This document shows, piece by piece, positions 2,177 through 51,119 of a DNA stretch of 64,000 nt. Each line of letters opens with the position of its first letter. The stretch's first letter is position 1. The position numbers were made by a program, and so were the translations under genes. The stretch comes from Actinomycetes bacterium (GTDB lineage Bacteria > Actinomycetota > CALGFH01). A model generated the notes under the pieces. The model saw nothing but the letters and a program-made list of their open reading frames with translations, was not told the DNA's origin and did not search any database. The stretch lies in NCBI GenBank assembly GCA_036000965.1, contig DASYUT010000164.1, forward strand, positions 1,932-65,931. Reading direction: 5' to 3'.

Positions 2177-2379
2177 TCCCGAACTCACCGCGGCGGGCCG
2201 CGGCGTGCATTGACCGCCGACATGCGCCGAGGCTCGACGCCATGTTGCCGATGGAATCCTTCCGTTCGCGCACGCGCGACCCACCCCCATCCCGGTGCAA
2301 TCAGCAGGGGTCCGCCTGCGTCCGACCGGGCGTGGGAGGCCGACGGCCAGCCGAGCGACAACGGTCAGGGACAAGCGTG

Positions 2380-2900
2380 CTGCATAACGTGCCGATCCGG
2401 TCGAGATTCGCCTTCACGCTGATCGTGCCGCTGCTGGGCTTGGCGGTCTTTGCCGTGACCGGCTGCGCCAGGTCGAACAGCGGGTCAGCGCCTACATCAT
2501 CGCCACCAGTTCGACCCTGGAGGCCAACGCCAAGCGGCGTGCGCTGTTGTACGGCGTGCTGCTGGCCACCACGGTCGGGCTCGCGATCGGCTTGTCGCTG
2601 GTCACGGCCCGCTCGCTCATCGTGCCGCTCGCGGTCTCAAAGACGCCATCGGCGAGGTGGCCCGGCACGAGCTCCTCGGTGTCGTCCGCCGCCTGGCAGC
2701 TCGCCCATGCCAACGAGCACATGGTCAATTCTCCGGTCGTGGAGTTGACGAGCGCGAGAATGCTCGGCTTCTTCGTGGTCGGGCAGCTTGCCGCACGGCA
2801 CGGCATCAAGGTGCGCCACTCCCAGTACGCCGACGTACCGCGCTGGTGCTCCTGCCGGTGGACCTTGTGGTCCGGTCCGACCCGTTGGCCGCCGCCGACG
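2380..2900 (+). pseudogene. Decayed remnant of a NIT/HAMP sensor-kinase-like (conservon CvnA-type) gene with multiple frameshifts
   Basis: Three adjacent frames carry: IRSRFAFTLIVPLLGLAVFAVTGCARS (N-terminal TM); QVEQRVSAYIIATSSTLEANAKRRALLYGVLLATTVGLAIGLSLVTARSLIVPLAV followed by LKDAIGEVARHELLGVV (second TM plus HAMP-like region); and NSPVVELTSARMLGFFVVGQLAARHGIKV (HATPase-like G-box). No single frame is intact and the total is far too short for a functional sensor. Confidence 0.3.
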
Positions 2901-2994
2901 GGCGTCCAAGCCAGGCCGTCCAAGGCCCCGGCCGACCGCGAGGTCCCCGATCGCCAACGTGGAGATGCTCACCGGAACGGCACCGGTCGAGGCC

Positions 2995-3501
2995 TCACCG
3001 GAGGGTGCGACTGCCAGACTCCTCCCGCGTCCACAGCCGCCACGCCACCAGGACCACACTGACCCACAGACCCGGGACGTAGAAGGTCAGGATCAGCCAC
3101 GAAACATCGGCTGCCTTGTCGAACAGGTCCTCGCGTATGCCCATGAGCGCGGCGTTGCTGAGGTCGATCACCGTTGCCACCACGAACACCCATGCCAGAG
3201 GAATCGCAAAGCGCCACCGATAGCGCAGGGCATACAGCGTTGCGAGGGCCAGCACCATTCCGACCAGGTCCCCGTAGACGATCTCGTCGCGGGTGAGGTC
3301 CGGGATGGCAAAGCCGAACTCCTGCGCCGAGAACAGCTGCAGGGCGACGTGGCGGAAGGCGTGGATCCACAGCAGGGGGGTGATGGCAGCGCCGAGAGCC
3401 ACAGCCCGCATCCTGGGCGCCGCATACCAGGCGGCCGCGGTGGCGAAGACGACGAAGCTGAGGACCATCGCGACCAGCGCGGCGGCGGTGAGCGCCATCA
3501 T
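2995..3501 (-). CDS. Integral membrane protein of unknown function (4-5 predicted TM helices)
   Basis: Starts MMALTAAALVAMVLSFVVFATAAAWYAAP…, 168 aa from tandem ATGs at 3496-3501. Hydrophobic helices alternate with Arg/Trp-rich loops. The long 225-aa ORF upstream of this start is a GC artefact. Confidence 0.5.
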   Translation of the reverse strand: MMALTAAALVAMVLSFVVFATAAAWYAAPRMRAVALGAAITPLLWIHAFRHVALQLFSAQEFGFAIPDLTRDEIVYGDLVGMVLALATLYALRYRWRFAIPLAWVFVVATVIDLSNAALMGIREDLFDKAADVSWLILTFYVPGLWVSVVLVAWRLWTREESGSRTLR

Positions 3502-3604
3502 TCGTCTCTCAGCCAGTCGAGCGCGTGCTGGCGATGGGTGAACCACGCGGTGGGGAACGTGGCGGGACCATCGCTGACGGGTTGGCCTGGCGGCAGGCGT
3601 CTCG

Positions 3605-3880
3605 GTGGACGGGCTGGCCGCCCACGCCAGCGTCAGCATCCGCACGCTCAACCGTCGCTTCAAGACGGCCACCGGCCAGACGCCCCGCGGCTACCTTCAG
3701 AGGATCCGCATCGAGGCGGCCAAGCGACTGCTCGAAACGACCACCGACCCCGTCGACCACCTCAGAGCCCAAGTCGGCTACGGCGACCCGACAGCATTCC
3801 GACGCGCGTTCACCCAGGCCACCGGTCTGGGTCCTCGAGCGTACCGACAGAAGTACGGCCCGCGACGACACCATCCGTAG
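3605..3880 (+). pseudogene. AraC-family HTH domain fragment (C-terminal DNA-binding domain only)
   Basis: The peptide …ASVSIRTLNRRFKTATGQTPRGYLQRIRIEAAKRLLETTTDPVDHLRAQVGYGDPTAFRRAFTQATGLGPRAYRQKY matches the AraC HTH. An in-frame TGA at 3575-3577 sits immediately upstream, so there is no N-terminal effector domain. Confidence 0.5.
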
Positions 3881-10619: not shown

Positions 10620-10943
10620 TCAGGAGCGCTTCTTGGGCCCGGCCGTGGCCGCGTACCGCTTGGCCCGCAGCGCCTTGGCGGCTGCCTTCTTCTCGGCGAT
10701 GCCCTCGACCCCGGCGACGGCGAGGAGGTTGGCGACCGCCTCGGTGGGCTGGGCGCCCTTGGCGATCCAGGCGCGCGCCTTGTCGGTGTCGATCTGGATG
10801 CTGGACGGCTCGGTGGCGGGGTTGTAGGTGCCGATGTTCTCGATGAAGCGGCCGTCGCGGGGGCTGCGCGAGTCGGCGACGACGACGCGGTAGGTCGGCG
10901 CCTTCTTCATGCCCATGCGCATGAGGCGGATCTTCACGGCCAT
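10620..10943 (-). CDS. rpsP: 30S ribosomal protein S16
   Basis: [42 protein letters not shown]…; 107 aa from the ATG at 10941-10943. Confidence 0.95.
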
Positions 10944-34141: not shown

Positions 34142-34347
34142 CGCCCGTTCCCTCCGAGGAACCCGGACGCTTCCTCTCCCGCCGGCGCCTGCTTCTGGCC
34201 TGTTGCTGGCCTGCTCATGGCCTCTTCAGACGCTGTGCTCGATGTACCCATGCTACTGCTCTCTTGCTTGAAGTTGCGAGATGGACCATCCGAGGGGTTC
34301 GTCACGGCGTCAGTCGGTCGCAACGTGCTTCAACGGAGGGAGCACCT

Positions 34348-35007
34348 GTGAGAAGACGCTGGAACGAGAACGGTCTGCTCGCCGCCGCGCTCGAGTACGC
34401 GGCGCTCGGCATCCCGGTGGTCCCCGGCCACTACCCGGGGGTCACGTCGCGGACCGGCCGCCGGCCGGGCACGGTCTGCTCATGCGCCAGGCTCGGCTGC
34501 CTGCACCCCAGCGAGCACCCCTTCGTCGGGCTCGAGCAGGCGACCACCGATCCGGCCCAGCTCGAGCAGTGGTGGCTGGAAGCGCCGCGAGCGAACGTGA
34601 TCCTGGCCACCGGGGTGGCCTTTGACGTGCTCGACGCCGGCGCGGTCCCCGGCGAGGCGATCACCCGCCGGCTCGACGGGACGGGCTGGGCGGGGCCGCT
34701 CGCCCGGACGGGCGGCGGGCGCTGGCACCTCTATCTGCCGCCCTCACTGGCCGGGACCACCCTGCTCCGGCCGACCGAGCGCAACCCCGGCCGCCAGCTC
34801 TACCTCCACGGCACTGGCGGGTACGTGACCGCACCGCCGAGCCGCCACGTCACCGGGGTCGCCGGCCGCTGGGTCCGCCCCCCGCGCCTCCCGGTCCCGG
34901 AGCTCCCGGTGCCGCTGGGCGCGCTGCTCGGCGACCCTCCCGGCCCGGGCCGCCAGGGGTTCGACCCCATGCTTGGGCACCTGGCCACGGGGCGGGTGGC
35001 GGGTTGA
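34348..35007 (+). CDS. Bifunctional DNA primase/polymerase (Prim-Pol) N-terminal-domain protein
   Basis: GTG start preceded by GGAGGGA. Sequence …LAAALEYAALGIPVVPGHYPG…CSCARLGCLHPSEHPFVGLEQATTDPAQLEQWWLEAPRANVILATGVAFDVLD… matches the Prim-Pol signature; 219 aa. Confidence 0.6.
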   Translation: MRRRWNENGLLAAALEYAALGIPVVPGHYPGVTSRTGRRPGTVCSCARLGCLHPSEHPFVGLEQATTDPAQLEQWWLEAPRANVILATGVAFDVLDAGAVPGEAITRRLDGTGWAGPLARTGGGRWHLYLPPSLAGTTLLRPTERNPGRQLYLHGTGGYVTAPPSRHVTGVAGRWVRPPRLPVPELPVPLGALLGDPPGPGRQGFDPMLGHLATGRVAG

Positions 35008-36559: not shown

Positions 36560-37282
36560 GTGGGGCAAGATGTGGCCCCGGGGACGAGCAGGGTCGGGAC
36601 GCCGGCCCCGGGCCGGAGGAGGCCGACGCTGTACCAGAGGGACTACATCCTCCGCCAGGTCGAGATGGCCGCGCAGATGCTCGCGCGCATCCTCGGGCTG
36701 GCCAAGGGCGGGCGCCGCGACGAGGCGATCGGGCTGTTCGAGCAGGCCTACCAGCCGCTGGTGGGGGTGAGCGGGCGGGTCGTGGCCGCCCTGAGCGAGG
36801 AGCAGCTGCTGACCCTGCTCACCTCGGGATCGAGCCCCGACCCCCGCCGGGTCACGGTCGCCGTCGAGCTGCTGGTGACCGAGGCCGACCTGCTGGCCGA
36901 GGCGGGCCGGTCGGCCGACGCCACCACCCGGTACCGGCGTGCCCTGGGCCTGGCCGCCTACCTGGCCAGCCACACGGGGAGCCTGCCGGACCCGGCCCTG
37001 GCCGCGCGGCTGGTCACCCGGGCCGGGCACCTCGACCTCTCCCCGCGGCAGCGCCTGCACCTGTGCCGCCTGCAGGAGGCGCTGGGACGCTACGCCGACG
37101 CCGAGGACTCGCTGTTCGAGGTGATCGACGACGACCCGGACGACACCGCCGCGGTCGACGAGGGGATCACCTTCTACCAGCGCCTGCTGGCCAGGGAGGA
37201 CGCCGAGCTGGAGGCCGGCGGCCTGCCCCGCGACGAGGTGCGGGCCGCCCTGTCCGAGCTGCTGCGCAGGCAGGTCGGCTAG
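36560..37282 (+). CDS. Hypothetical protein (helical, acidic; not recognised)
   Basis: 240-aa ORF immediately after Nif3 on the same strand, with codon usage consistent with neighbours. I do not recognise a family. The start is uncertain (internal MAAQMLARILGL is possible). Confidence 0.4.
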   Translation: MGQDVAPGTSRVGTPAPGRRRPTLYQRDYILRQVEMAAQMLARILGLAKGGRRDEAIGLFEQAYQPLVGVSGRVVAALSEEQLLTLLTSGSSPDPRRVTVAVELLVTEADLLAEAGRSADATTRYRRALGLAAYLASHTGSLPDPALAARLVTRAGHLDLSPRQRLHLCRLQEALGRYADAEDSLFEVIDDDPDDTAAVDEGITFYQRLLAREDAELEAGGLPRDEVRAALSELLRRQVG

Positions 37283-37429
37283 CAGGGCGCCGGCCAGCGG
37301 GCCTGTGAGCACCATTCATGCAGCTCAGAGCCATGCTCGCTCGAGGGTGCGGCCGGCAAGGCCGATCTCTGCCCCAACGGCCACAAGCTTGGAAGGCACA
37401 TCCGGGTTCTCCCCGCGCGGAGGCGGGTA

Positions 37430-37760
37430 CCGGGGGAGCGAGTGTCACGACGGCAACGAGCGGGAGACTGGGCTATGGCGCTGGTTCGCTGCGACCGCCG
37501 CGCCACCGAACGCGACGAGGCCGCGATCGCCCGCTGGCGCGCCGAGGAATGGCCCAGGATCAAGGGGGCGCTCGAGCGCGGCGCGTGGCTCTGCTTCCCG
37601 ACGAGTCCGGCGTCTCGCTGATCCCACCGGTGCGGCGCACCTGGGCGCCACGCGGGCAGACGCCGATCCTGCGGCACCGGGGCCACTGGAAGCGCGCCTC
37701 TTCCGTCCGCGGATCGGGATCCGCGGCGTACCTTCTTCCGCCGATAACGGGAGGATTGGT
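37430..37760 (+). mobile_element. IS630-family transposase fragment (central part, frameshifted)
   Basis: Frame c reads MALVRCDRRATERDEAAIARWRAEEWPRIKGALERGAWLCF. After a 1-nt slip in a CCC run, frame b reads PDESGVSLIPPVRRTWAPRGQTPILRHRGHWKRAS. This is the region around the first Asp of the DDE_3 domain. It is truncated at the stop of the convergent gene at 37760. Confidence 0.55.
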
Positions 37761-39355
37761 CAGCGCGGCGCCGGCTGCCAGGCGGGCCGGGAGACGACCG
37801 CCTTGCCGGTGGGCAGGCAGGCCGCCCCCGTTCCGTCGGCGCGCGCGACGAAGATGCTCCCGTCGCGGACGAAGGCGAGGCGGTCGCCCGTGGGCGACCA
37901 GGACGGGGCGGCGTCCCGCCGGCCGTTGGTGAGCTGGCGGTCGCCGGTCCCGTCGGCGTTCATGACATGGATCGCGCCGTCCTTGACGTAGGCGATGCGA
38001 CCGCCGTCAGGGGACCAGGCGGGGGCGTACTCGTAGCCTGGGGCGGTGGTCAACCGGTGGAGCCCGGACCCGTCGGCGTCCACGACGGCGACGTCCTCGT
38101 TGCTGGCGCCGGCGTCGGCGTAGGTCGCGAACGCCAAGCGGCGGCCGTCCGGGGACCACGAAGGGCCGGAGTCGGCACCGGCGGTGGTGGTGAGCTGCCG
38201 GAAGCCCGACCCGTCGGCGTTCAGGACGGCGAGGTCGCTGATGTCACCGCTGTCGCCCGCCGTGACCACGACGAGGCGGTGGCCGTCCGGGGACCAGGCC
38301 GGCTCGCCCGCGGGCCTGTCGGGGGCGATGTCCCTGCGGCCCTTGCCGTCGGCCCCGATCACGTTGACTGTCGGAGGCTGCTGGTCGTCGCCGGGCACCG
38401 AGCGGGTGTACGCGATGTGGGCGCTGTCGGGCGACCAGGCCGGCTCGGCCTGGCTCGCGTCGTCGCCGCCGACCCGGCGCAGCCCGCTGCCGTCCGCGCC
38501 CACCACCCACAGCTGCGTGGTGTCGCCGCCGGCCGCGAACAGCAGGCGCCCGCCGCCTCCCGGCAGCGGCCGGCCACCGCGGCACGGCGGAGACTGGGGT
38601 CCGAACGGGTCGCCACCGGGCACGGGCACCGTCGGGTGGTGCTGGAGGGTGCTCCCCGCGACCGCCGGCTGGGCGCCCTTGCGGGTCAGGGTCAGCTCGA
38701 GCTCGACCACGCCCCGGTCGGCGATCCGGAAGCCGAGCAGGCTGGGCACCTGCAGGCCGAAGTCGGCCCGGCGGATCTCGAAGCTGCCGGCGACCTGGAT
38801 CGTTGGGCCGTCCCAGCGGGCCTCGAGCGGGACGGTGACCCGCCGGGTGACGCCGTGGAGGGTGAGGTCGCCGGGGAGCTGGACGTGGACGACCTGGCCG
38901 CCGCCGACAGTGCCGAGCGGTACCTGCCCGCCCAGCTTGAAGCGGGCGGTCGGGAAGCGGTTGAGTTCCAGGCCGCGGTCGTGCATGGCGCCGTCGCGGG
39001 GTGGCTGGTCGGTGTGGAGCTCGCTCAGGTCGGCGGTGACCTCCGCGGCGGTCACCGTCCCGCGCGCGATCGTGACGGTCCCCGTGACCGCCGTCGAGCG
39101 GCCGACCACGTCGCTCGGGGCGGTGACGACCGTGAGCCGCTCGCGGATGCGGTAGCCGACGAACCCGCCCGCGTCGGCGGCGACTACCCACTCGCCGTCG
39201 GCGGTGCCCGTCGCCGGTGCCCGGTCGGGGGCCGGCCGCAGCCGCGCCGTGCCGGGCGTGTCCGCGGTCCGCGCCGCCAGCACCAGCCATCCACCGCCGA
39301 GGAGCAGCGCGACCGCGACTGCCGCCACAAGGCCGACCTTCAGTAGTCTGGGCAT
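37760..39355 (-). CDS. Anchored fusion protein: YceI-like domain + TolB-like PD40 beta-propeller
   Basis: 531 aa. N-terminal TM or signal-anchor (MPRLLKVGLVAAVAVALLLGGGWLVLAA). The YceI-like part (…FVGYRIRERLTVV…TGTVTIARGT…HGVTRRVTVPL…) is followed by repeated PD40 blades (…AWSPDSAHIAY…, …AWSPDGHRLVVV…, …SWSPDGRRLAFAT…, …AWSPDGGRIAYVKDG…, …SWSPTGDRLAFVRDG…). Confidence 0.75.
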   Translation of the reverse strand: MPRLLKVGLVAAVAVALLLGGGWLVLAARTADTPGTARLRPAPDRAPATGTADGEWVVAADAGGFVGYRIRERLTVVTAPSDVVGRSTAVTGTVTIARGTVTAAEVTADLSELHTDQPPRDGAMHDRGLELNRFPTARFKLGGQVPLGTVGGGQVVHVQLPGDLTLHGVTRRVTVPLEARWDGPTIQVAGSFEIRRADFGLQVPSLLGFRIADRGVVELELTLTRKGAQPAVAGSTLQHHPTVPVPGGDPFGPQSPPCRGGRPLPGGGGRLLFAAGGDTTQLWVVGADGSGLRRVGGDDASQAEPAWSPDSAHIAYTRSVPGDDQQPPTVNVIGADGKGRRDIAPDRPAGEPAWSPDGHRLVVVTAGDSGDISDLAVLNADGSGFRQLTTTAGADSGPSWSPDGRRLAFATYADAGASNEDVAVVDADGSGLHRLTTAPGYEYAPAWSPDGGRIAYVKDGAIHVMNADGTGDRQLTNGRRDAAPSWSPTGDRLAFVRDGSIFVARADGTGAACLPTGKAVVSRPAWQPAPR

Positions 39356-39465
39356 GCGCCCTCCTTCGGGGCCAACCGGGCATCCGCCTGTCTACACCGA
39401 CGTGCCCCGGGTGGTTCCCGAGCGGGCGGCACGTCCACGCCAGCGCTGCCCCGACCCGAACGACG

Positions 39466-40152
39466 CTAGCCGAGGACAATGTCGAGGACGGCGCGGAGGC
39501 GGCCGCCGCGCTCCACCAGATGGAGCACTGGTCCGCCGCCCGCTCCCGAGAAGGGGTCGTCGGCGAACTCCACCTCGGTCTCCAGGCCCCGGCTGTCCGG
39601 CGCGCGAACGACGACATGCAGGTGGGGCGTGCCGGAGTAGTTGCCTGGCTTGACCGACTCGAACTCGTAGCGTCCTTTCGCGTCGGTCGTCATCGTGCCT
39701 TGGACGTAGCAGCACTGGATCTCGCTGGTGCCCTGGCCGGGGCCGTAGCTGCCGTCGCCGTTGGTCTGCCAGACCCGGACGGCCGCGCCGGGGACCGGCG
39801 CGCAGCCGGACCTCAGGACCCGGCCCGAGATGACCATCGGCCGCCCCCGCCGGCTGGCGGCGAGATTGGCGGGGGTGGGCCGCAGCGTGAGGCCGGGACC
39901 GAGGCGCAGCCGCGACGGGCCGTGGGTCGGCCCGTCCCATCCCTGCGGTGCCTGCCCCACCGTCGGCGGGCAGGCCCCCCCGCCCGGCGCGGTGGCAGCC
40001 GGGCTGTCGCCGCCGGTGGAGGGCGCGGTGGCCGCCGGCCGGGCCACGGCCGCAGCCGCCGGGCGGCCTGCCGGGCGGTGGGCCGCGACCGCGATCAGAG
40101 CCCCTGCCACGACGACGACCGCGGCCACGACGATCCAGCCTCGACGGCCCAT
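39466..40152 (-). CDS. Secreted intradiol ring-cleavage dioxygenase-like protein
   Basis: Signal or anchor (MGRRGWIVVAAVVVVAGALIAVAA), a Pro/Ala-rich linker, then …GRVLRSGCAPVPGAAVRVWQTNGDGSY…TMTTDAKGRYEFESVKPGNYSGTPHLHVVV…, a beta-sandwich with a His/Tyr metal site as in the small protocatechuate-dioxygenase-beta-like family. Confidence 0.6.
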   Translation of the reverse strand: MGRRGWIVVAAVVVVAGALIAVAAHRPAGRPAAAAVARPAATAPSTGGDSPAATAPGGGACPPTVGQAPQGWDGPTHGPSRLRLGPGLTLRPTPANLAASRRGRPMVISGRVLRSGCAPVPGAAVRVWQTNGDGSYGPGQGTSEIQCCYVQGTMTTDAKGRYEFESVKPGNYSGTPHLHVVVRAPDSRGLETEVEFADDPFSGAGGGPVLHLVERGGRLRAVLDIVLG

Positions 40153-40473
40153 GGTGAGCTCCTCCCGACCCGGAACGCTGACGCCCCCACTACACCGGCC
40201 GCGAGTGCGGAGTTCCGGGTCGGGAGACCGCTACGCCCGGGGGGGGTACCGCCGGGTGAGATCCGGCCCGTCCGCGGTCAGCGGGAGCAGGTGGACACCC
40301 CACTCCCGGCGGCGAGCCCTTCCTCGCGCGGATGCCGACCGACACCGTGGCGGTGATGGTGTCCGTGGTGTAGCGGGGTAGGGACGCAACGGCAGCCGCA
40401 CTTGCGAAGTGGCGTCGGTGAAGTGCGCTGACCAGCAGCTCGCGGCCAGCGTCGAGCGGCAAGTGCGGCTGTC

Positions 40474-40700
40474 GTGTTAACCCCTGGCTGGCTGGCCGGC
40501 CAGCGCCACGGGCTGGCGGTGGGGTACCTGCCCGGCTACGCCCACGACTTGGACCCGGTGGAGGGGCTGTGGGCCAACCTGAAGGTGGTTGAGCTGGCCA
40601 ACCTGTGCCGCGACACGATCGCCGAGGTCACCGACGCAGCCCGGCAGGGGATCGTCCGGGTCCGCCGGGAGTCCGCCCCCAGCAGCAACACTTGGCACCT
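40474..40700 (+). mobile_element. IS630-family transposase fragment (C-terminal end of DDE_3), same orientation as the 37.4-kb fragment
   Basis: …GLAVGYLPGYAHDLDPVEGLWANLKVVELANLCRDTIAEVTDAARQGIVRVRR matches the IS630 (Tc1/mariner-like) C-terminus (…LPPYSPDLNPIE..W…). A perfect 11-bp inverted repeat (GCCGCACTTGC/GCAAGTGCGGC) lies just upstream (40393-40467). Confidence 0.55.
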
Positions 40701-40826
40701 GGCAACAGGCCCAAGGGACACCAGTAGCTCATCGCTCGGCCTCGCGGGGTTGGTTTGGGACAGGTCCCTTGACCTCCTGGTCCAGGGCCGTCCAATCTGG
40801 ACGACATCCGGTCGGAGGCGCGACCC

Positions 40827-42399
40827 ATGGACATCGATCCAGCTCAGGCACTCAAGAGCGCTCAGGATGTGGCTGGGCCGGCCGACCTGGCCTCGGCGCC
40901 GTCGGTGGCCCCGCCGGGGACCCGGCGGGCCCGGCGTCGGCGGCGTCCGACCGGCGAGCCGCCGCCACTGCCACGCCACCTGGAGACCACCGGCGTGGGA
41001 TGGCTGGTGGCCGCGGTGGCGCTGGTGGCGCTGTCGCTGGTGGTGTTCACCGCCGGCCGCTACGGCCGCGGAGTCTCCTTCACCGTCGTCGACAACTGGG
41101 TACTTGAGCGGCTGGCCGCGCTGCACACGCCCGGGCTCACGCGCGTCATGCTCGCAGTGTCGGGGCTGCTGGGCTCCATCTGGACCATCAAGCTGCTCGG
41201 CTGGTCGACCGGAATCATCCTGCTTACCTTCAAGCGCTTCCGGCAGCTCGTCGTTGCGCTGGTCTCGGTGAACCTCGTCACCGTCCTCGCCATCGTGTTG
41301 TCGACGGCGGTGCGGCGCCCGCGGCCGTTCGGGGTGGCCATCGAGGGGAACTGGGCCAGCTGGGCGATGCCGTCGCGGCCAGTCGCCTACCTCGCCGCGA
41401 TCCTGATCGCCATGCTCTACAGCCTGGTGCCGGAGGGTCGTTGGGTTCGCGCACCGCGACATCAAGCCGGCCAACCTGCTGGTCCGCGACGGCCGGCTGC
41501 TGCTGATCGACGTCGCGTTCGTGGAGGCCCGACCGAGTCCCTGGCGGCAGGCGGTCGACCTGGCCAACATGATGCTCTGCCTGGCGTTGCGCAGCGATCC
41601 CGAGCTGGTCTACCAGCGAGCCGGGCGCCAGTTCTCGGTCGAGGAGATCAGCGAGGGGTTCGCGGCCACCCGCGGGCTGGCGATGCCGTCGCAGCTGCGC
41701 CACCTGCTGCGCGCCCAGGGCCGGGACCCGCACGCCGAGTTCCTGGACCTGCTGCCCGAGCGGCCGCGTCCCATCTCGATCCAGCGCTGGAGCACGCGGC
41801 GCGTCGGGCTGGCGCTGCTCTCGCTCCTGCTGCTGGCCCTCGGCCTTTGGACCGTGAACACCAGCGCGCGGTCCGACCGGATCGTCACCTCCCTGAACGC
41901 CAGCAACCTCGACTGCACCACCTGGGAGCCGCTGTGGCTGATGGCCCAAGCGGTACCGTCGGCCTCGCTGGTGCCCTGCGTGCAGCTCCTCCCGGTCGGC
42001 TGGACCCTCGCCGACGTCCTGGTCAAGGACGGCCGCGCGCGCATCAGCTTCGACTCCGACCGCGTCGGCAAGGGAGCGGTGGTCGTGCAGCTCGCCGCGT
42101 CGTGCGACCTGGCCGGCGCCGTCGAGGTGACCTCGGAACAGCGGACGGCGCGGCGCTACCTGCGGATCGAGCGCGACTCCGCAGCGTTCTCGGCGACCCG
42201 TTCCTACGTCTTCCCGGGGGGCTGCATCACCGAACGGTTCGTCGCACCGGAGGCGAGCCGAGCACAGCTGGACAGCCAACTATCGTTCGCGATCGGGTTC
42301 ACCACCCGCGAGGAGCTAGGGCAGGCGCTCAGCCAGCACTCCGGAGGGCGGCTCCACCTGGACCCCCAAGGTGGCCACCTGGACCCCCAAGGTGGCTAA
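40827..42399 (+). pseudogene. PAP2-like polytopic membrane domain fused to a protein-kinase-like domain (HRD catalytic loop), frameshifted
   Basis: Frame 0 reads …LVVFTAGRYGRG…LGWSTGIILLTFKRFRQLVVALVSVNLVTVLAIVLSTAVRRPRPFG…YSLVPEGRW (multi-TM, PAP2-like KxxxxxxRP). Frame +1 continues …FAHRDIKPANLLVRDGRLLLIDVAFVEARPSPWRQAVDLANMMLCLALRSDPELVYQ…, a kinase catalytic loop HRDxKPxN. The frame switches near 41440-41455. The C-terminus carries a 21-nt tandem duplication (HLDPQGGHLDPQGG). Confidence 0.4.
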
Positions 42400-42548
42400 G
42401 CGCCTGCTCAGAAGTCCTGTCGGTAACTTGGCGCGAAGGCCCTGGTCGCTGAACCGGGTTACGGACAGAACCTCTGGTGACCTGCTTACGACTTGGTGCG
42501 CGATTGAGATTGGGCGTGCCAGCCTGACCGGTCGGGCTGAATCGTCGA

Positions 42549-43142
42549 TCAGCGGCGGCGGGCCGCCCGGTCGGAGACCAGGCCCGCGATCGCCAGATGG
42601 GTCTGGGCGTAGGACTCCCGCCGCCCGGTGTAGCGCTGCAGCGACCGCCACTGCTTGTGCTCGGCGATGGCGTGCTCGATGCAGATCCGCTCGGAGGACT
42701 GCTTGGCGCGGGCCTGCGTCCAGGCGGCGGCGTAGGCGAACACATCGGCCAGGGTCTTGAGCCGCAGGCCAAGCCCGCCGGGGACAGCGAAGCCACGCCC
42801 GGCCAGCAGCGGCCGAATCTCGTGGATGGCGCGGGTGATGGTGGAGCGGTCCACTTCATACAGCACCGCCAGGGCCTGGTGGGGCAGCTGGAACCGCAGG
42901 TGGACCAACGTGACCAGGATCCGGTCGCACAAGCCGAGCTTCAGGTTGGGGCCGGCGCCGGCGGCACGCTGGCGAGCACGGCCACGGCGCTGGCGCAAGG
43001 CGCCCTCGTGCGCGGCGGTCCAGGGGCCAGCCAACTCGGCGATCAGGGCGCCGAGGTGTTGCCGGGAGAGCCCGGTGAAGCAAGGATGGGGAAGCAAGGA
43101 TGGGAGAGGGCCGCACGGGCCCATGCTGGCGTCAACATCCAC
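42549..43142 (-). mobile_element. IS5-like (HTH_Tnp_4/DDE_Tnp_4-type) transposase with the catalytic core deleted
   Basis: N-terminal …FTGLSRQHLGALIAELAGPWTAAHEGALRQRRGRARQRAAGAGPNLKLGLCDRILVTLVHLRFQLPHQALAVLYEVDRSTITRAIHEIRPLLA is HTH_Tnp_4-like. It joins directly to a C-terminal tail …ERICIEHAIAEHKQWRSLQRYTGRRESYAQTHLAIAGLVSDR, the last ~50 aa of DDE_Tnp_4. The DDE core is missing. Confidence 0.55.
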
Positions 43143-43743
43143 GCATGATCACCCGTGGGCCTGGCCCATGCTCCCCAGGCTCATGCTCGCCAAGTTATGC
43201 CGCGAGCTACCCCGCGCTTGCCCCGGTCTTCAAGGCCGAAGGGTGTCCCAGGCGCTTCGTGGGTTGGCTGAGCACTACGGGATCCAAGCGTCGATGACCT
43301 CGACCGGCCGGCTGGACCGCTCGGACGACGCCGAGCGCGTTCGCGCACCGCAACAGCATCACGTAGCTGCGGCGCCTTCGGTACGGCACCCCCAGACGAT
43401 GTCCTCGGGCGCGCTGAGCCGTGACATGGCACCGCAATCAGTGAAGGGCGGATTGCGGCGAAGCACAGGGCCGTCTCGTTCAGTGAGCACGGGTCATCAG
43501 GTACGCGGCAAAGCCGGGGATGAGCCGCCACGGCTGTGGCGTGTCGGTGCCGACGATCCGCTGGATGGTGAAGGCGTGGCCGAAGCGCTGGTCGACCTCG
43601 CCCGGCGCGATCGGTTCCAAGCCCATCCAGCGGTCCAGTCGCCGCGGTGGCCACTGGAAGCACCACAACAGGAACCGGGCACCCGGGCCGGCCAGCGGCA
43701 GGACGTTGTCGACCCGCCGGCGTGGCCGGCCGGCGCGCCGCGC

Positions 43744-44649
43744 TCACCGAGCCGTCACCTCACCGGCGGCCCGCAGGCGGCGGAGGTACCGGGTCAGCAC
43801 GATCAGCAGCGGCACCTGCAGCACCCCGTACAGGGCGTGGACGGCGTAGTGGCGCAGCGACTGCTCGGGCCGGTACGGCCACCACGGCACCGACAGCACG
43901 CTGAGCAGCCCACCGCCGATCGCGTGCAGCCATCCCCAGCCCAGCAGCAGCCAGGCCGCGACCCGCCGCCCCGGCGACAGCCAGCCGGCGGCCAGCAGCA
44001 GGGACACCGCCGTCGGCACGACGGTCTGCGGACCCAGCCGCGCCTGGCCGGTCAGTTCGGCGAGGTTGTGGATGACCAGGCCCAGCCACGACAGCGCGAT
44101 GCCGGCGACAACGGTCGGGGCAGCGACCGGATGCTCGGAAGGTCGCCGCAACCTCCTGGTGCCCGTGCTCAGGCCGCTGGCGGCCGGGATGCGGGTGTTG
44201 TGGCCCCTTGGTGGTGGGCGACCGTCGTGGCTGGGTCGCGCCAGAAGGCGGTGACCAGCTCGACCACGGCGGGGGCGGCTTGCAGCAATGGTCCGATGTG
44301 GCCAGCGCCCGGCAGGATGACCAATCGCGGCGGCGTGCAGGGCGAGCAGCGAACCAGAGGACACGGCGTACACGAAGGCCGACCCGCCGGCGTCGGCGAT
44401 GAGCGCGGCGAGGTCGTCGACCTCACGCTCGACCGCGTAGGGCTGGGTGTCGGTGCTTGCGCCTCGGCCTCGGCGGTCGTAGGTGACGACGGTGAAGTCG
44501 GCTGCCAGCAGCTCCACCGGCGCCCGGAGGGGACGGAAGTCTCGGTAGCTCCCGGCGGCGTCCACCAGGATGAGCGCCGGACCGGCGCCAGATCGCTCGA
44601 ACCCGATCGAGGTCCCGTCGCTCGATGTGACCCTGTTCACCACGTTCAT
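43744..44649 (-). pseudogene. Chimeric read-through of two gene remnants: an alpha/beta-hydrolase N-terminal fragment (44320-44649) and a polytopic membrane-protein C-terminal fragment (43744-44130)
   Basis: High-coordinate end: MNVVNRVTSSDGTSIGFERSGAGPALILVDAAGSYRDFRPLRAPVELLAADFTVVTYDRRGRGASTDTQPYAVEREVDDLAALIADAGGSAFVYAVSSGSLLAL (alpha/beta hydrolase up to the nucleophile elbow). Low-coordinate end: …VVAGIALSWLGLVIHNLAELTGQARLGPQTVVPTAVSLLLAAGWL…LYGVLQVPLLIVLTRYLRRL. The linker between them is nonsense. Confidence 0.35.
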
Positions 44650-44902
44650 GTCCGGTTCTCCTTCCGAAGGTTGCCGTAACGGGAGCACGCTGCGGTGCAT
44701 GACCCACGGCCAGCCGCCATCCCGTCGCCCCGTCGTGAGGTTGTCGCGCGACCCGGGTCGAAATCGACAGGTCGCGCCAGGAAGCCTTCGCGCTTCGGAG
44801 CGCCGGCGATGCTGGTGACCGCCTTGCGGTCGGGGCGTCGATCTGGGCCTAGTTTGGCGACCACCTGACGCTCAGGATCCCTTCGGTGCCGAGGAGGCCG
44901 CG

Positions 44903-45271
44903 ATGAGGTACCTCTGCCTGGTGTACGGGGATGAGGCCAAGTTGGATGTCATGCCGCAACACGAGCTCGACGCCCTCATCGACGAGGTCCTCGCCAACAA
45001 CGAGGAGCTGCAAGCGAGCGGCCAGCTCATCCTGGCGGAGGCGCTGGACCACGTCGCAGCGGCGACGACCGTGCGGGTCCGCAACGGCAAGCTCTCGGCG
45101 ACCGGCGGCCCATTCGCCGAAACGAACGAGCAGCTTGGTGGGTTCGTGCTCATCGAGGCTTGCGACCTGAACGAGGCGATCCGGATCGCCGGGCGGATCC
45201 CGAGCGCGCGCATCGGGAGCATCGAGGTGCGCCCCGTGATCGACCTCCGGCGCGAGCGCTCGGCTCGGTGA
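44903..45271 (+). CDS. YciI-like (DGPF domain) protein
   Basis: MRYLCLVYGDEAKLDVMPQHELDALIDEVLANNEELQASGQLILAEALDHVAAATTVRVRNGKLSATGGPFAETNEQLGGFVLIEACDLNEAIRIAGRIP; GAGGAGG RBS. The stop overlaps the sigma-factor GTG (GTGA). Confidence 0.8.
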   Translation: MRYLCLVYGDEAKLDVMPQHELDALIDEVLANNEELQASGQLILAEALDHVAAATTVRVRNGKLSATGGPFAETNEQLGGFVLIEACDLNEAIRIAGRIPSARIGSIEVRPVIDLRRERSAR

Positions 45272-46560
45272 GCCACGGCGTGGCCACCGAGCTGCGGGAG
45301 CGGATCGAGCTCCTCTACCGATCCGAGTCGCGCCGGGTCCTGGCCACCCTGATCCGCCTGCTGGGCGACTTCGACCTCGCCGAAGAGGCGCTGCAAGACG
45401 CCTTTACGGCAGCGATGGAGCAATGGCCGCGAGACGGCATGCCTGCCAACCCGCGTGCCTGGCTGGTGTCGGCCGGCCGTTTCAAGGCGATCGACCGGCT
45501 CCGGCGACGCGCCAGATTCGACGCAGCACTCGGCGAGCTCGCCGCCCGACTCGATGATCGGGCCGCTGACCCCACCGACCGGGATGACCAGATGCTCGAG
45601 GACGACCGGCTGCGGCTGATCTTCACCTGCTGCCATCCGGCCCTGTCGCCCGACGCCCAAGTGGCGATGACGCTGCGTGAGGTGTGCGGCCTCACCACCG
45701 AGGAAATCGCCCGCGCCTTCCTCACGGGTCCGCCCACGGCGGCCCAGCGCATCGTGCGCGCCAAGGCGAAGATCCGGGCCGCGCGCATCCCGTACGAGGT
45801 GCCGCCGCGCGCCGAGCTGGCGGGACGCCTGGAGACGGTGTTGCACGTCGTCTACCTCGTCTTCACCCAGGGGTACGCGCCCGCATCGGGGGACTCGGTG
45901 GTGCGCACCGATCTGGCCGACGAGGCGATCCACCTTGGCCGGCTCCTCGTCGAGCTCCTCCCGGAGCCGGAGGCGCTGGGCCTGCTGGCGCTGATGCTGC
46001 TGCAGGACTCCCGCCGCGCTGCGCGCACCTCCGCCGACGGCGAACTGATCCTCCTGCCCGACCAGGACCGCTCGCTGTGGGATCGTGAGCGCATCGCCGA
46101 GGGGGCCGTCCTGCTCGAGCGGGCGGTCTCGTCGGGGCGGATCGGTCCCTATGCCCTCCAGGCGGCGATCGCCGCGGCACACGCGGAGGCGCCCACCGCC
46201 GAGGCCACCGACTGGCATCGGATCGTCGGGCTGTATGACCTCCTGGCATGGGCGGACCCCTCGCCGGTGGTCAAGCTGAACCGGGCGGTTGCCATGTCGA
46301 TGCGCGACGGGCCGGCGTCGGGCCTGGCGCTGATCGATGCCATCCTCGCGCGCGGCCAGCTCGACACCTACCACCTGGCGCACGCTGCACGAGCCGACCT
46401 CCTCCGACGGCTGGGGCGAACCCCCGACGCACGCGCCGCCTACCAGCGTGCCCTCGAACTGACCCGGCAGGAGCCCGAGCGGCGGTTCATCAAGCGACGG
46501 CTGAACGAACTCGCTCGAGGGCCTGGCGATGACGATGCGTCGCGCGCAACACACCGGTGA
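45268..46560 (+). CDS. ECF sigma factor of the YciI-associated type, with a long C-terminal TPR-like extension
   Basis: Sigma-2 region (…LLYRSESRRVLATLIRLLGDFDLAEEALQDAFTAAMEQWP…PRAWLVSAGRFKAIDRLRRR), sigma-4 region (…AMTLREVCGLTTEEIARAFLTGPPTAAQRIVRAKAKIRAA), then a ~230-aa helical tail (…LNRAVAMSMRDGPASGLALIDAI…AAYQRALELT…). Confidence 0.8.
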   Translation: MSHGVATELRERIELLYRSESRRVLATLIRLLGDFDLAEEALQDAFTAAMEQWPRDGMPANPRAWLVSAGRFKAIDRLRRRARFDAALGELAARLDDRAADPTDRDDQMLEDDRLRLIFTCCHPALSPDAQVAMTLREVCGLTTEEIARAFLTGPPTAAQRIVRAKAKIRAARIPYEVPPRAELAGRLETVLHVVYLVFTQGYAPASGDSVVRTDLADEAIHLGRLLVELLPEPEALGLLALMLLQDSRRAARTSADGELILLPDQDRSLWDRERIAEGAVLLERAVSSGRIGPYALQAAIAAAHAEAPTAEATDWHRIVGLYDLLAWADPSPVVKLNRAVAMSMRDGPASGLALIDAILARGQLDTYHLAHAARADLLRRLGRTPDARAAYQRALELTRQEPERRFIKRRLNELARGPGDDDASRATHR

Positions 46561-46980
46561 CCTGCCGACCAAGGGTGGCGCGAGCCATCGCGACCGGATA
46601 CCTCGGGCAGCATGGCGCCGCCCAGCCGACGCCACCCTGCGCCATCACCGGCCGGAGGCCCACGGGGTCAACGAATGTGAAAGCAACCCGCCTCCCTGAC
46701 CCGTTCCTACCGCCCGGCGGTGCGCAGACCCGCCGCCGGGCACCACCGGGCCGAGTGCCCGGCAGACGGGCTCATCGGGTTCGTCCGGTCCGGCCCGCTG
46801 GGATCAATCCTCTGAGCTGGGTCGCCTCCGTTGGGTGGTTGAGCGGTCGCTGGCCTGCTGACTGGGCTGCCGCCGGCTCCAGGTCCGCCAGGAGCGCCGT
46901 GATGACCTCCTGCCCACCGGCCGGGTGCCACTCGCGAGCGCCCCGAGCTGTACGGCGTGTGAACGGAGTAAGGCAAGCGC

Positions 46981-47802
46981 ATGCTGTCACGAACCGACCC
47001 GAGCCGTGGCCGGAATCAGCGTGAGGAGGTGCGGACCTTGACCCTGCGCGATCACTTCGGACAGGTTGCCCCCGTCTACGAGTCGCTGCGCACGACCGAC
47101 CAGGCGCCCGTGCGGAGGATCCGCCAGCTCCTGCCCGACCGCCCCGTCACCGGCGTGGACATCGGCTGCGGGACCGGGCGGTACTCCAAGCTCCTGCGCA
47201 CCCTGCTGCCCGAGGGCTCGTTGCTGATCGCCAGCGACGTCTCCGCCGCCATGCTGGCTGAGCTGCAGGCCGGCAACCGCGGCCCGTGCTGGGTGGCGCC
47301 GCTGCTGGCGACCGCGGAGGAGCTGCCGCTTCGCAGCGGCAGCCTCGACCTGGCCACCTCGTTCAACTCGGTCCACCACTTCGACCTGGGCCGCTTCCTG
47401 GCTGGCGTCGTCCCCGTGCTGCGGCCAGGCGGCCAGCTCTTCATCTACACCCGCACCCCGGAGCAGAACGCGCGGACGATCTGGGGCCGCTACTTCCCCG
47501 GCTTCGCCGAGCACGAGCAGCGCCTGCGTAGCGAGCGGGAGCTCCGGGCCGCCGTCAGCAGCACCAGGGGCCTGGTGCTCACCGGCATGAGGACCTTCCG
47601 TCACCCGCGGACGAGCACCCGCGAACGGCTGCGGGCCCAGGCCGAGGGCCGCCACTACTCGACGTTCTCCCTCTACCCGCCGAAGGAGCTGGCCGTGGCG
47701 ATCGACGCGTTCCTCGCCCGCCTGCCCGGCCCCGACGTCTCCTGGGTGGACGAGCACCTCCTGGTGATCGCCCATCGCAGCCGCGCCGAGCGCGGATACT
47801 GA
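46981..47802 (+). CDS. Class I SAM-dependent methyltransferase
   Basis: Motif [18 protein letters not shown], post-I ASDVS, motif [15 protein letters not shown], motif [13 protein letters not shown]. The real start is probably an internal GTG. Confidence 0.75.
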
Positions 47803-47809
47803 TGGGCCC

Positions 47810-48172
47810 GAGCGTCCGCACAAGATCTGGGTGCTGGATGGCGATCGCCAAGGCGATGCCGGCTCCCAGGCTATAGCCGAAGAGGTCAGCCTCGTCGATC
47901 CCTTGCTGCCGCAGCAGGGCGGCGGTGTCGTCGGCCATCTGCTGGATGGTCAACGGGCGGTCGATGTCGGCGGTGTGCCCGTGTGCCTGCTGTTCGACGG
48001 CGATGACCTGCCGGGTCTTGGCAAGGTCCGGCAGCAGCTTGCCGAACGAAGTCTCGATGGCCGACAACGAGCCGTGCAGCAGCACCAGCGGCCGGCCGCT
48101 GCCGTGGATCTCGTAGTACATCTTGAGTCCGTTCACCGAAGCGTATCCGGGCTGAGGGACAGTGTTGGCCAT
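47810..48172 (-). pseudogene. Alpha/beta-hydrolase N-terminal fragment (truncated after the nucleophile elbow)
   Basis: [119 protein letters not shown]. The frame then decays into the antisense of the methyltransferase gene. Confidence 0.5.
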
Positions 48173-48202
48173 GTCGGTTCCTTCCGAAGTCTGGGTCGTC
48201 TA

Positions 48203-49093
48203 ATGGGCTGCCACGGGCTGCAGTCGCCGGCGGCGGTCGGGGTCTGGGCCACCGCCAACTTCCTGGCCCTGCCGCTCGGGCCGATCCTGGGCGGCTGGCT
48301 GCTCACCAACTACTGGTGGGGCTGGGCGTTCCTCATCAACGTGCCCGTGGTCCTGGTCGGGCTGCTCGCCGTCATCGTGCTGCTGCCGGAATCCCGCAGC
48401 GCCACCCGCGCCGGGCTGGACCCGGTCGGGGTGCTGTCCTCCAGCGCCGGCCTGACGGTGCTGGTCTACGGCGTGATCGAGGCGGGCCAGCACGGCTGGG
48501 GCGACACCATGGCGCTGACCGCCATGATCGCCGGGACGCTGCTCCTGGTCGGGTTCGTGGCCTGGGAGCGCCGGCTCGGCCGGCGTCCGGCCGGGCAGCC
48601 GCTGGTCGACCTGGGCCTGTTCCGCTCCACCAGCTTCACCTGGGGCACGATCCTGGCGGCGGTCGGGATCTTCGCGCTGTTCGGCGTGCTGTTCACCGCA
48701 CCGCAGTACTTCCAGGCCGTCCTGGGGACCGACGCCATGGGCAGCGGCCTGCGGCTGCTCCCGCTGATAGGCGGCGATCCTGGGCAGCGTGCTCAACGCC
48801 ACCTACAGGGGCAGCTGCACCTGGCCGGCGTGCCAGCGCGAGTCGCCGACGCGGTGCGAGACAGCGTCTTCGCCGGGGTCGCGGCCGCCCAGCAACTCGG
48901 CTCGGTGTCGCTGCTGCACTCGGTGCGCACCGCCTTCGTGGACGGCATGGATGTCATGCTGTGGGTGTGCGCCGGCATCGCGGTGGCAGGCATCGTCCTC
49001 GCGCTGGTCTTCCTGCCCGGGCGGGCCGCCGCAGCAGCGGCAACGCAGGCCGAGCCAGCAGCATTGGAGGATGAGGCCGTTGTCCGAGGATGA
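48203..49093 (+). pseudogene. MFS (DHA2/EmrB-QacA-like) transporter remnant: N-terminally truncated with a local double frameshift
   Basis: …[52 protein letters not shown]…[14 protein letters not shown]…[52 protein letters not shown], then a brief frame slip ([11 protein letters not shown] in frame +1 at ~48775-48810) before returning to …[51 protein letters not shown]. There are no TM1-4. Confidence 0.5.
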
Positions 49094-49682
49094 TCGACCA
49101 GCGGTCGGGTTGCGCGAACGCAAGAAGGCCAAGACCCGGGCCGCGATCCAGCAGCACGCGCTGCGGCTGTTCCGCGAGCAGGGCTACCAGGCCACTACCG
49201 TCGAGCAGATCGCCGAGGCAGCCGAGGTCTCACCCAGCACGTTCTTCCGCTACTTCCCGACCAAGGAGGACGTCGTGCTGTACGACGCCCTCGACCCGGC
49301 GCTCCTCGAGGCGTTCCGGGCACAGCCGGCCGAGCTGAGCCCGATCCAGGCCCTGCGGGGAGCGATGCAGGCGGTGTTCGCCGAGCTGCCCCCCGAGGAG
49401 GTGGGGGTGCAGCGGGAACGCGACGCGCTGATCCGCTCGGTGCCCGAGCTGCGCGCCAGGATGGTGGACGAGTTCGCCCGCAACCTCCAACTGATCGCCG
49501 AGGTCGTGGCCGAGCGGGTCGGGCGTGCTGCGGACGAGCCGGCCGTGCGCACCCTGGCCGGCGCGGTGATCGGCGTGGGGATCAGCGCGTGGTACACGGC
49601 GGGGGACCATGCGACGACCGAAGACTACCTCGCGCTCATGGACGCCGGCCTGGTCCATCTGGAGGCGGGCCTTCCGCTGTGA
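49071..49682 (+). CDS. TetR/AcrR-family transcriptional regulator
   Basis: …[58 protein letters not shown] is the TetR HTH, with a helical ligand domain following. ATG right after GGAGG; a TTG 9 nt downstream is an alternative start. Overlaps the 3' end of the MFS remnant. Confidence 0.75.
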
Positions 49683-49783
49683 CCTGACGGGGCGGCCGCG
49701 TCGACTCAAGGCGCCCAGGGTGACGGGTTGGCCAGCCGCCCTAGCGGGGGAGGTCGGCGGTGTCCGAGCCGGCAGCCGGCGGG

Positions 49784-50230
49784 TCAGGCCTCGGGGCGGG
49801 GCAGCTCGGGCAGGTTGCCAAGGTCGAGGGCCTTGAGCAGGCTGGCGGGCCGGAAGTCCTCTGCCAGCAGCTCCTCGGGCCGGCGCCAGGCGATCTCCAC
49901 CAGGTGCCGGTCGCGCGCCGTGTGCCGCTCAGGCTCGACCGTGAGGACGCCGTCGTGGCCGGCGGCCAGCCAGCCCGCGAACACCACCTCGAACCGGTGG
50001 CGCTGGGGCAGGTCCTGGAGCCAGACCACGCCGGCCAGGCCGACGGGCAGGCCAGTCTCCTCCTGCAGCTCCCGCCGAGCGGTGTCCTCGAGCCGCTCTC
50101 CCGCCTCCGCCTTGCCGCCGGGCAGGCACCAGAACTCGTCCCCGTCGGGGTGGCGGTGGTGCGCGGCCAGCACCTTGCCGTCGTGGACGACGAGGACGCG
50201 GGCGACCAGCTGATCGCAGCGCTTGGCCAT
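49784..50230 (-). CDS. NUDIX hydrolase
   Basis: Nudix box …GGKAEAGERLEDTARRELQEETGL… (GX5EX7REUXEEXGU). Confidence 0.8.
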   Translation of the reverse strand: MAKRCDQLVARVLVVHDGKVLAAHHRHPDGDEFWCLPGGKAEAGERLEDTARRELQEETGLPVGLAGVVWLQDLPQRHRFEVVFAGWLAAGHDGVLTVEPERHTARDRHLVEIAWRRPEELLAEDFRPASLLKALDLGNLPELPRPEA

Positions 50231-50234
50231 GGGC

Positions 50235-51119
50235 TCAGCCCTCGAACGGGTTGGGGCCGTAGGGCCAGGAGGCGGACGTCGGGTGGCTCGGGCCGCCTGG
50301 GCGCAGCAGCCCGGCGGCCCGGAACCGCCAGGCGTGGTCGGTCGGGCCGATGCCCTTGCCGAGCGGGAAGCCGCCAGCGATCGCGCCGTTCAGGTAGCGC
50401 TTGGCCGCGCTGGTGGCGGTGGCCACGTCCAGGCCCACGGCGAGGTTGGCCGCGATGGCCGACGCGAGCGTGCAGCCCGTGCCGTGGGTGTGGGGCGTGG
50501 CCAGGCGCGGCGCCGTGAGCCAGGTCGCCTCCCGGCCGTCCCAGAGCAGGTCGGCCGCCTCGTCCCCGCGGAGGTGGCCGCCCTTGACCAGCACCCAGCG
50601 GGGGCCGAGGTCGTGCAGGGCGGCGGCCGCCTCCTGCATGCCCGCCCGGTCCCGGGCCTCGATCCCGGTGAGCAGCCGGGCCTCGCCCAGGTTGGGGGTG
50701 ATGATGGTCGCCAGCGGGACCAGGCGGTCCCGGATCGCCTCGACCGCCTTGGGGCGGAGCAGCGGGTCGCCGTGCTTGGACACGGCCACCGGGTCCACCA
50801 CCAGGTTCCCGACCGAGAACCGCTCGCAGGCGTCGGCGACCGCCTCGATGATTGCCGCCGACGCCAGCATGCCGGTCTTGGCCGCGTCCACGCCGATGTC
50901 GGTCGCCACCGACTCGATCTGCTCGAACACCGCGCGCGGCTCGAGCTCGTAGAACCCCTGCACCCCGACCGAGTTCTGCACGGTCACGGCGGTGACCGCC
51001 GACATGCCGTGCACCCCGTGGGCCAGGAAGGTCTTGAGGTCGGCCTGGATCCCGGCCCCCCCGCCGGAGTCCGAGCCGGCGATCGTGAGCGCCCGCGCCG
51101 GCACTGGCAACCCGTACAC
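50235..51119 (-). CDS. thiD: Hydroxymethylpyrimidine/phosphomethylpyrimidine kinase
   Basis: …[22 protein letters not shown]…VVDPV…TPNLGEA…VLVKGGHL…[13 protein letters not shown]…. Confidence 0.85.

Follow-up and report, generated by a model that had tools for sequence, protein, structure and literature searches.

Two plus-strand stretches resembling an IS630 transposase bracket a pair of minus-strand genes on contig DASYUT010000164.1 of an Actinomycetes bacterium (GCA_036000965.1), and the arrangement raises the question of whether accessory genes lying between transposase halves belong to a mobile element. The window that we analyzed is a 64,000-nucleotide stretch of this contig (positions 1,932 to 65,931, forward strand), and coordinates are window positions unless another contig is named. 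The preliminary description of the locus saw in it a cargo segment inserted into, or recombined between, IS630 copies, in effect a decayed composite element. We conclude that the structure is an ordinary insertion sequence (IS) scar. Working composite transposons, mobile insertion cassettes, and transporter ISs all need IS ends, and this structure, which lacks them, is none of these. The explanation that we cautiously favor is a nonfunctional scar in which a single IS630 copy was interrupted when a block of DNA was captured or replaced part of it, with erosion afterward.

Identity and extent of the IS630 fragments

Plus-strand peptides were present at both sites, as read in the window translation. 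Joined into one query, the two peptides led in a protein search to a clade of 191-aa DDE_3 proteins headed by P0123, which was the best relative of both pieces, with 43 of 46 (left) and 56 of 62 (right) residues identical. When 112 homologues were ranked, one clade headed both lists, and the residue ranges were equal in every 191-aa reference. The contig of P0123 carries an intact 1162-bp IS630-family element (L012:1-1162), used here as the reference element, with 24-bp terminal inverted repeats (TAAAGATCTTCGCTCAATAGGTTGA), an orfA encoding four helix-turn-helix (HTH) domains (HTH_23/28/32/33), and an orfB encoding P0123 (191 aa, DDE_3) that begins in the -1 frame on a stretch of seven G residues. 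The element terminates in ...TCTTTA, and IS630 elements prefer TA as target. It lies at the end of its contig and adjoins a 910-aa Type ISP restriction-modification gene (1136-3868; N6_Mtase, Type_ISP_C).

At the nucleotide level, the left piece corresponds to nt 468-704 of the reference element (87% identity) and the right piece to nt 894-1080 (90% identity), and tblastn placed them at residues 1-52 and 116-177 of P0123, respectively (window positions in Table 1). Along the 146 positions of Pfam DDE_3, the left piece matched positions 2-41 with 23.2 bits and the right piece positions 99-130 with 24.6 bits, each piece alone scoring under the gathering score of 28.6 bits. Pfam and the nucleotide identities to L012 together uphold the original identification of both as IS630 DDE_3 sequence, the left one with the first catalytic Asp (D19), and the alignment to L012 bears out that they are co-oriented, collinear, nonoverlapping, and of the same subgroup. 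Their outer limits were drawn too wide at first, as the left piece stops at 37700 and not at 37760, and the right piece at 40674 and not at 40700. Weak similarity of the left piece may extend back to ~37430, and the homology of the right piece may start at 40486 instead of 40488. The joints to the intervening DNA read GGAAGCGCGCCTCTTCCGTCCGCGG on the left and GTGTTAACCCCTGGCTGGCTGGCC on the right.

The connector absent between the pieces amounts to 63 aa (189 bp, residues 53-115), where ~90 residues had been estimated. D103, the second catalytic Asp, falls within it, which leaves an incomplete catalytic triad of D19 and the DLDPVE motif. A 2-nt deletion in the G-run of the left piece has fused the orfA and orfB frames, and a 1-nt deletion (TTC C-C GAC) at CF(L)DESG breaks the reading frame of the same piece, the break already marked in the left peptide by a slash being real. 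The recognizable remnant of orfA is limited to its last ~25-35 codons, its N-terminal HTH domains are absent, and there is no room for the rest because the DUF6483 gene ends at 37282. Missing from the right piece are the last 14 orfB codons and the right inverted repeat.

Nucleotides 1-467 and 1081-1162 of L012 had no counterpart anywhere in the window, and no further IS630 sequence was found in the 64 kb beyond the two pieces. A search for terminal inverted repeats outside the pieces, as the preliminary description had proposed, gave no match to the reference repeat (AAGATCTTCGCTCAATAGGTTGA) in the window at ≤3 mismatches. Direct repeats at the fragment or island boundaries were limited to chance-level short matches, with no target duplication among them, and no TA duplication is definable because both IS ends are deleted. 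The two pieces sum to 422 of 1162 bp, short of a single IS copy, and thus give no proof that two copies ever flanked the genes. The IS630 remnant is dead, being frameshifted and having lost both inverted repeats, most of orfA, D103, and the C-terminus.

Evidence that the joints are genuine

The window comes from a metagenome-assembled contig ("MAG TPA: Actinomycetes bacterium"), and IS630 is repeated in the community, as would suit an artefact in which a metagenome assembler linked unrelated contigs via IS630 repeats. That explanation is effectively refuted. The joints run from IS to non-IS DNA, outside shared repeat sequence, and the exact YceI-PD40 protein encoded between the pieces and the 48-aa left-piece open reading frame (ORF) occur in contigs from at least eight samples (ENA, JGI, Logan). 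All four fragment boundaries recur in independent assemblies, spanned at 99.8-100% identity across different samples and assemblers: contigs L006/L029 cover all four, L007 covers both inner joints, and L005/L027 and L033 cover the left ones. In five samples, contigs end at 37642-37655, where IS630 is most conserved, as a multicopy IS in the community would cause (P0124 represents 581 member sequences).

The genes between the pieces

The gap between the pieces measures 2,787 bp and holds two intact minus-strand genes, and Pfam matches to YceI, PD40, and Dioxygenase_C agree with their earlier description as a YceI-TolB-like fusion and a dioxygenase-like protein. For the YceI-PD40 gene, the matches were to YceI (E = 3.6e-20) and PD40 (E = 1.1e-33), the GC content at third codon positions (GC3) was 0.94, and about 80 near-full-length two-domain homologues were found at 53-59% identity. 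The dioxygenase-like protein matched Dioxygenase_C with E = 5e-15, and its closest solved structures were 4ILT and 4ILV (E = 1.6e-8), named "Intradiol ring-cleavage dioxygenase" by the depositor, to which its WQ..G.Y and PG.Y.G..H.HV motifs, with Tyr/Tyr/His/His, align. We take these structures to be SACTE_2871, a small secreted intradiol dioxygenase. By sequence, the passengers match SACTE_2871-type dioxygenases, YceI lipid-binding proteins, and TolB-like PD40 propellers.

In the comparison with core genes that the preliminary description had proposed, GC and codon usage of the two genes were indistinguishable from those of the core genes (z = +0.09 and -1.43), and they are not informative as a mark of foreign origin. 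Expression of both genes is presumably driven by the DNA upstream of them. The short hairpin just inside the left joint is probably the terminator of the YceI-PD40 gene; its fold over a 71-nt stretch was not significant (z = -0.5), and it is kept, with changes, in the homologous contig L019.

At the other dioxygenase loci, homology to the window stops at 40199-40270, and beyond 40270, up to the right joint, the window has a 215-bp filler. Within the filler (40271-40485), we found no Pfam match for a 90-aa ORF, no plasmid match, and nothing resembling IS nt 705-893, the stretch lost between the two pieces; an Rfam scan of 37000-50000 at E ≤ 0.1 gave no matches, nor did looking up the 196-aa ORF that runs antisense across the right IS630 piece. 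The filler contains an extended hairpin of 92 nt (core string GCAGCCGCACTTGCGAAGTGGCGTC) with a folding energy of -56.7 kcal/mol (z = -4.7), and 0 of 200 shuffles were as stable; the minus-strand fold reached -44.8 (z = -3.3). The perfect 11-bp inverted repeat reported at the right junction is present, although it proved to be a perfect 13-bp repeat (40393-40405 / 40459-40471) forming the outer stem of this hairpin. Inverted repeats of this sort are not rare in the window, because perfect 12-mer repeats with a loop of ≤100 nt number 27 where 3.2 are expected. The 92-nt hairpin is single-copy in the window and occurs elsewhere only in same-strain contigs.

Occurrence of the block in other genomes

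Contig L019 shares 97.3% nucleotide identity with the window over 37697-39501, a span that takes in all of the YceI-PD40 gene but just the end of the dioxygenase-like gene. The two sequences part at 37697-37700, right at the IS630 joint, where L019 passes into unrelated DNA and the start of an SRPBCC gene. In L024-L026, 94% identity over 39438-40270 is followed by a jump to 38477, and the YceI-PD40 gene that follows the dioxygenase-like gene lacks the equivalent of window 38478-39437. Upstream of the block in these contigs (L024:1-760) lie IS110 (Transposase_20) and rve_3 relics. In a more distant relative, L001 (56% identity), the genes of the pair are neighbors in swapped order, and a scan of the genome collection with the YceI-PD40 protein returned a single relative, at 56% identity. 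Homologues at 75% (YceI-PD40) and 82-83% (dioxygenase) stand singly in unrelated contexts, so the pairing of the genes is not general.

The copies in L019 and L024-L026 have no IS630 arms, and the block does not travel with the IS630 halves, because it is found elsewhere without them. The arms-plus-cargo arrangement was seen at one locus only, in eight samples. The YceI-PD40/dioxygenase pair is, as judged from these comparisons, a loosely linked accessory unit found in rearrangement-prone, IS-littered places. We considered the left boundary shared with L019 as a sign of a discrete mobile end and rejected it, as homology ends wherever either genome has rearranged.

Two of the single homologues have neighborhoods of their own interest. 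In the actinobacterial metagenome-assembled genome GCA_009772905.1 (L009:1-2265, L010:1-2265), a copper membrane monooxygenase operon (AmoC / AMO / Monooxygenase_B) lies ~8 kb from the 75% YceI-PD40 homologue. Around the 83% dioxygenase homologue (L021:8725-11459), several neighbors are short fragments (Pyridoxal_deC, 162 aa; Aldo_ket_red, 139 aa), which suggests a further pseudogene-rich accessory region.

The strain-specific variable region

Syntenic loci were gathered by searching metagenome contigs with the neighboring DUF6483 protein. In L013, the closest syntenic relative (87-95% amino acid identity over nine flanking genes), 130 bp (10762-10891) replace a 12.4-kb region between the DUF6483 and NUDIX genes (the latter at 49784..50389 in the window). 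Nucleotide homology to L013 ends at window 37336 and resumes at ~49760-49762, and 37337-49761 is strain-specific as a whole because homology stops and resumes at its edges. The expectation that relatives lack the insertion thus holds for L013, although what is absent there is the whole of 37337-49761 and not a 3.3-kb unit set in core DNA. Elsewhere, the same site holds an unrelated 6.2 kb (L014, 10705-16870), ~2.9 kb (L016, 8511-11430), or other genes (L018), and the DUF6483/NUDIX intergenic site is, on this comparison of loci, hypervariable.

No tRNA gene was found within 30000-55000 and no integrase among the island ORFs scanned. The GC content of the variable region (0.68-0.80) compares with 0.69-0.79 in its flanks, in a window that is high-GC overall (about 70-78%), and the codon-usage z of the island genes scored in frame ranged from -1.6 to +0.4 (the TetR gene not counted). 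Beyond the right IS630 piece comes a membrane protein gene with a weak Pkinase match at HRDIKPANLLV (E = 0.008), probably a frameshifted pseudogene, and then a second transposase relic in which Pfam detected no DDE domain, the core being apparently deleted. The alpha/beta-hydrolase and MFS genes both look truncated or frameshifted, raising the pseudogene load of the region. A Prim-Pol-domain gene (34264-35007, plus strand), just upstream of NIF3, is kept in L013, L014, and L018; it belongs to the core, outside the variable region.

Table 1. Coordinates of the features in and around the IS630 scar
Feature	Window position	Strand	Description
IS630 relic, left	37466..37700	+	orfA end, G-run frameshift site, orfB residues 1-52 with catalytic D19
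IS630 relic, right	40488..40674	+	orfB residues 116-177, including third acidic motif DLDPVE
Two-gene accessory block	37701..40270	-	Also present in other genomes
9-bp-stem hairpin (CCGCGGATC gg GATCCGCGG)	37707..37726	-	34 nt past YceI-PD40 stop, 6 nt inside left joint
YceI-PD40 gene	37760..39355	-	Intact, 531 aa: hydrophobic anchor/signal, YceI-like domain, PD40 (TolB-like) beta-propeller
Dioxygenase-like gene	39466..40152	-	Intact, 228 aa: hydrophobic N-terminus, Ala/Pro-rich linker, small intradiol-dioxygenase-like domain
Filler, 215 bp	40271..40485	.	Upstream of dioxygenase-like gene; not common to L021, L022, L024-L026
Extended hairpin, 92 nt	40386..40477	+	Foot 8-9 nt from right IS630 joint
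Variable region, 12.4 kb	37337..49761	.	Between conserved DUF6483 and conserved NUDIX genes
Membrane protein, kinase-like motif	40827..42399	+	ORFs 40827-41400 and 41407-42399, in different frames
DDE_Tnp_4 / IS5-type transposase relic	42549..43142	-	HTH_Tnp_4 (E = 3.2e-13) joined to short C-terminal tail
Alpha/beta-hydrolase relic	43744-44871	-	Pfam, frame analysis
YCII gene	44819-45271	+	Intact; directly 5' of sigma gene
ECF sigma factor	45274-46530	+	Intact, DUF6596, TPR-like C-terminal repeats
Methyltransferase	46972-47802		Pfam
MFS transporter fragment	about 48200-49093	+	Pfam, frame analysis
TetR/MftR-type regulator	to 49682		Pfam

A second joint at nucleotide 40485/6

Contig L008 (Logan, SRR8552842) follows the window over 37644-40486, after which comes a 30-nt tail (L008:1-30) identical to window 45749-45778, inside the intact ECF sigma gene. 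One of two things explains it: deletion of 5,262 bp, or insertion of an additional copy of the block into the sigma gene. The window arrangement is the older of the two, because the sigma gene is intact across 45748/45749; the reverse order, with L008 as ancestral, was rejected, as the inserted 5.26 kb would then have had to complete an intact sigma gene by contributing precisely its 5' half. Nucleotide 40485/6 is therefore joined to IS630 nt ~891-894 in the window and to 45749 in L008, and it sits 8-9 nt from the foot of the 92-nt hairpin.

Origin of the scar

Under our favored explanation, one two-ORF IS630 copy (orfA with HTH, orfB with DDE_3, and a -1 frameshift on the G-run) would have resided in the hypervariable DUF6483/NUDIX site. 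A double-strand break or illegitimate recombination in orfB would have exchanged 186-189 bp (residues 53-115) for a 2.79-kb piece, possibly from a closely related actinomycete as donor, that would have brought the dioxygenase-like and YceI-PD40 genes, the terminator hairpin, and the 215-bp filler with its long hairpin. Further deletions would then have taken the left 467 bp and the right 82 bp of the IS, hence both inverted repeats, and the scar is now incapable of transposing. We infer the one-copy origin of the pieces, the order of events, and the break-and-capture mechanism. One copy fits because the pieces match the same reference with similar divergence (87% and 90% identity), are co-oriented, collinear, and nonoverlapping, and add up to less than one copy; it is favored because three events (the break and two outer deletions) suffice, against at least six for two copies. 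The left joint is a true breakpoint, taken from an L019-like context, because L019 continues past 37700 into non-IS DNA. The variability of the locus among relatives, its richness in pseudogenes, the second transposase relic, and the position of the block beside IS debris in L024-L026 are all consistent with a scar.

Several points weigh against this account. The case for a single copy is purely one of parsimony, and two independently truncated copies would be nonoverlapping by chance roughly half the time. No intermediate was found, either as a relic with nt 704-705 contiguous or as a donor locus with the 215-bp filler. Capture, of the nonhomologous end joining (NHEJ) type or by template switching, is a candidate mechanism, and the microhomology visible at the left joint is only 0-1 nt. 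A purely passive scar also does not predict the reuse of 40485/6 in the L008 joint.

The main competitor, which we consider unlikely, is a decayed composite transposon, in which two direct IS630 copies carried the block here and four deletions left nt 468-704 of the left copy and nt 894-1080 of the right copy. The pieces are indeed co-oriented and of one subgroup, IS630 is multicopy in these communities (witness the contig breaks at 37642-37655 and the 581 sequences under P0124), and the block turns up as an accessory unit in varied settings, two of them with transposase debris alongside. This history is nevertheless less parsimonious, requiring the events of at least two further IS copies and four independent deletions, two of which must have halted no more than 6 nt from the terminator hairpin and 9 nt from the long one while sparing both genes. 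An inverted repeat, a TA duplication, and a second overlapping IS segment are all missing, the other block copies have no IS630 arms, and homologous recombination between two IS copies in direct orientation would be apt to remove the cargo, not to erode the unit symmetrically. The proposal that a cargo was inserted between IS630 halves stands in part, in that the pieces are collinear and of one subgroup, the intervening DNA is foreign to IS630, and close relatives lack the insertion; its composite part is unmarked, with no inverted repeats and less than one IS copy. The recurrence of 40485/6 brings in two further explanations, both improbable in our judgment. Bacterial DNA is prone to breaks and deletions at long palindromes, and palindrome-provoked breakage or replication slippage at the hairpin foot, with no element-encoded specificity, might have made both the IS630 joint and the L008 deletion, whose breakpoints coincide 8-9 nt from a very stable hairpin; palindrome deletions, however, usually remove or bisect the palindrome, which is intact in both arrangements, and agreement to 0-2 nt is tighter than nonspecific breakage predicts. 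Rather less probable still is that the 2.79-kb block (37701-40485) is a hairpin-ended nonautonomous cassette whose right end is nicked by a trans-acting HUH-type enzyme 8-9 nt 3' of the 92-nt hairpin, after the models of IS200/IS605 right ends, IS91 ends, and oriT nic sites. Such a cassette would have entered IS630, and the same nick would have given adjacent deletions, of 187 bp of IS630 and later of 5.26 kb in the L008 population. In its favor are two independent joints at 40485/6, beside an unusually stable hairpin (z = -4.7), and a second hairpin 6 nt inside the left boundary. Against it, Pfam revealed no HUH transposase, relaxase, or Rep gene in the island ORFs scanned; the hairpin is single-copy in the window and absent at all unrelated loci, with no copies sharing ends; and L024-L026 have the genes without the hairpin-bearing filler. 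A terminator role suffices for the left hairpin, whose fold is not significant. A left boundary in common with L019 would follow from any one rearrangement and is no independent evidence, and the L008 joint is a 30-nt contig tail from one sample.

Comparison with known systems

The relic belongs to the two-ORF IS630 family (Tc1/mariner superfamily), being 87-90% identical in nucleotide sequence to the intact L012 with the G-run site kept; annotated plasmid IS630 elements ("IS630 family transposase | winged helix-turn-helix" pairs in Rhodococcus and Streptomyces) are at ~65% nucleotide identity. Set beside an intact IS630, it has no inverted repeats, DNA-binding domains, second catalytic Asp, or C-terminus and is frameshifted. 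Partial IS copies have been called "scars of ancestral recombination events" (ISfinder/ISsaga usage; PMC3129680), and our locus is of the same class, truncated intercalated IS remnants in a rearranged region, with the difference that the interrupter is two intact genes and not another IS. Its likeness to composite transposons lies in accessory genes bracketed by co-oriented sequences of one IS type; unlike this locus, those have two IS copies, outer ends, a target duplication, and the unit at several sites. Mobile insertion cassettes and transporter ISs also carry passenger genes between IS ends (PMC3129680), but they keep both inverted repeats and are mobilizable in trans, whereas here the passengers are present and both repeats absent. 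As with genomic islands, the region is absent from the syntenic site of relatives, but it has no integrase, tRNA target, att repeats, or deviant composition.

The reuse of 40485/6, if real, would point to site-specific nicking acting on the block, and an HUH cassette, if true, would add to the Actinomycetota a relative of IS200/IS605-type or rolling-circle elements that carries passenger genes. The striking picture of cargo between transposase halves need not mean a working element and carries little mechanistic weight. The locus serves instead as a worked example of how a hypervariable site in uncultured soil actinomycetes gathers and shuffles accessory genes and transposase debris.

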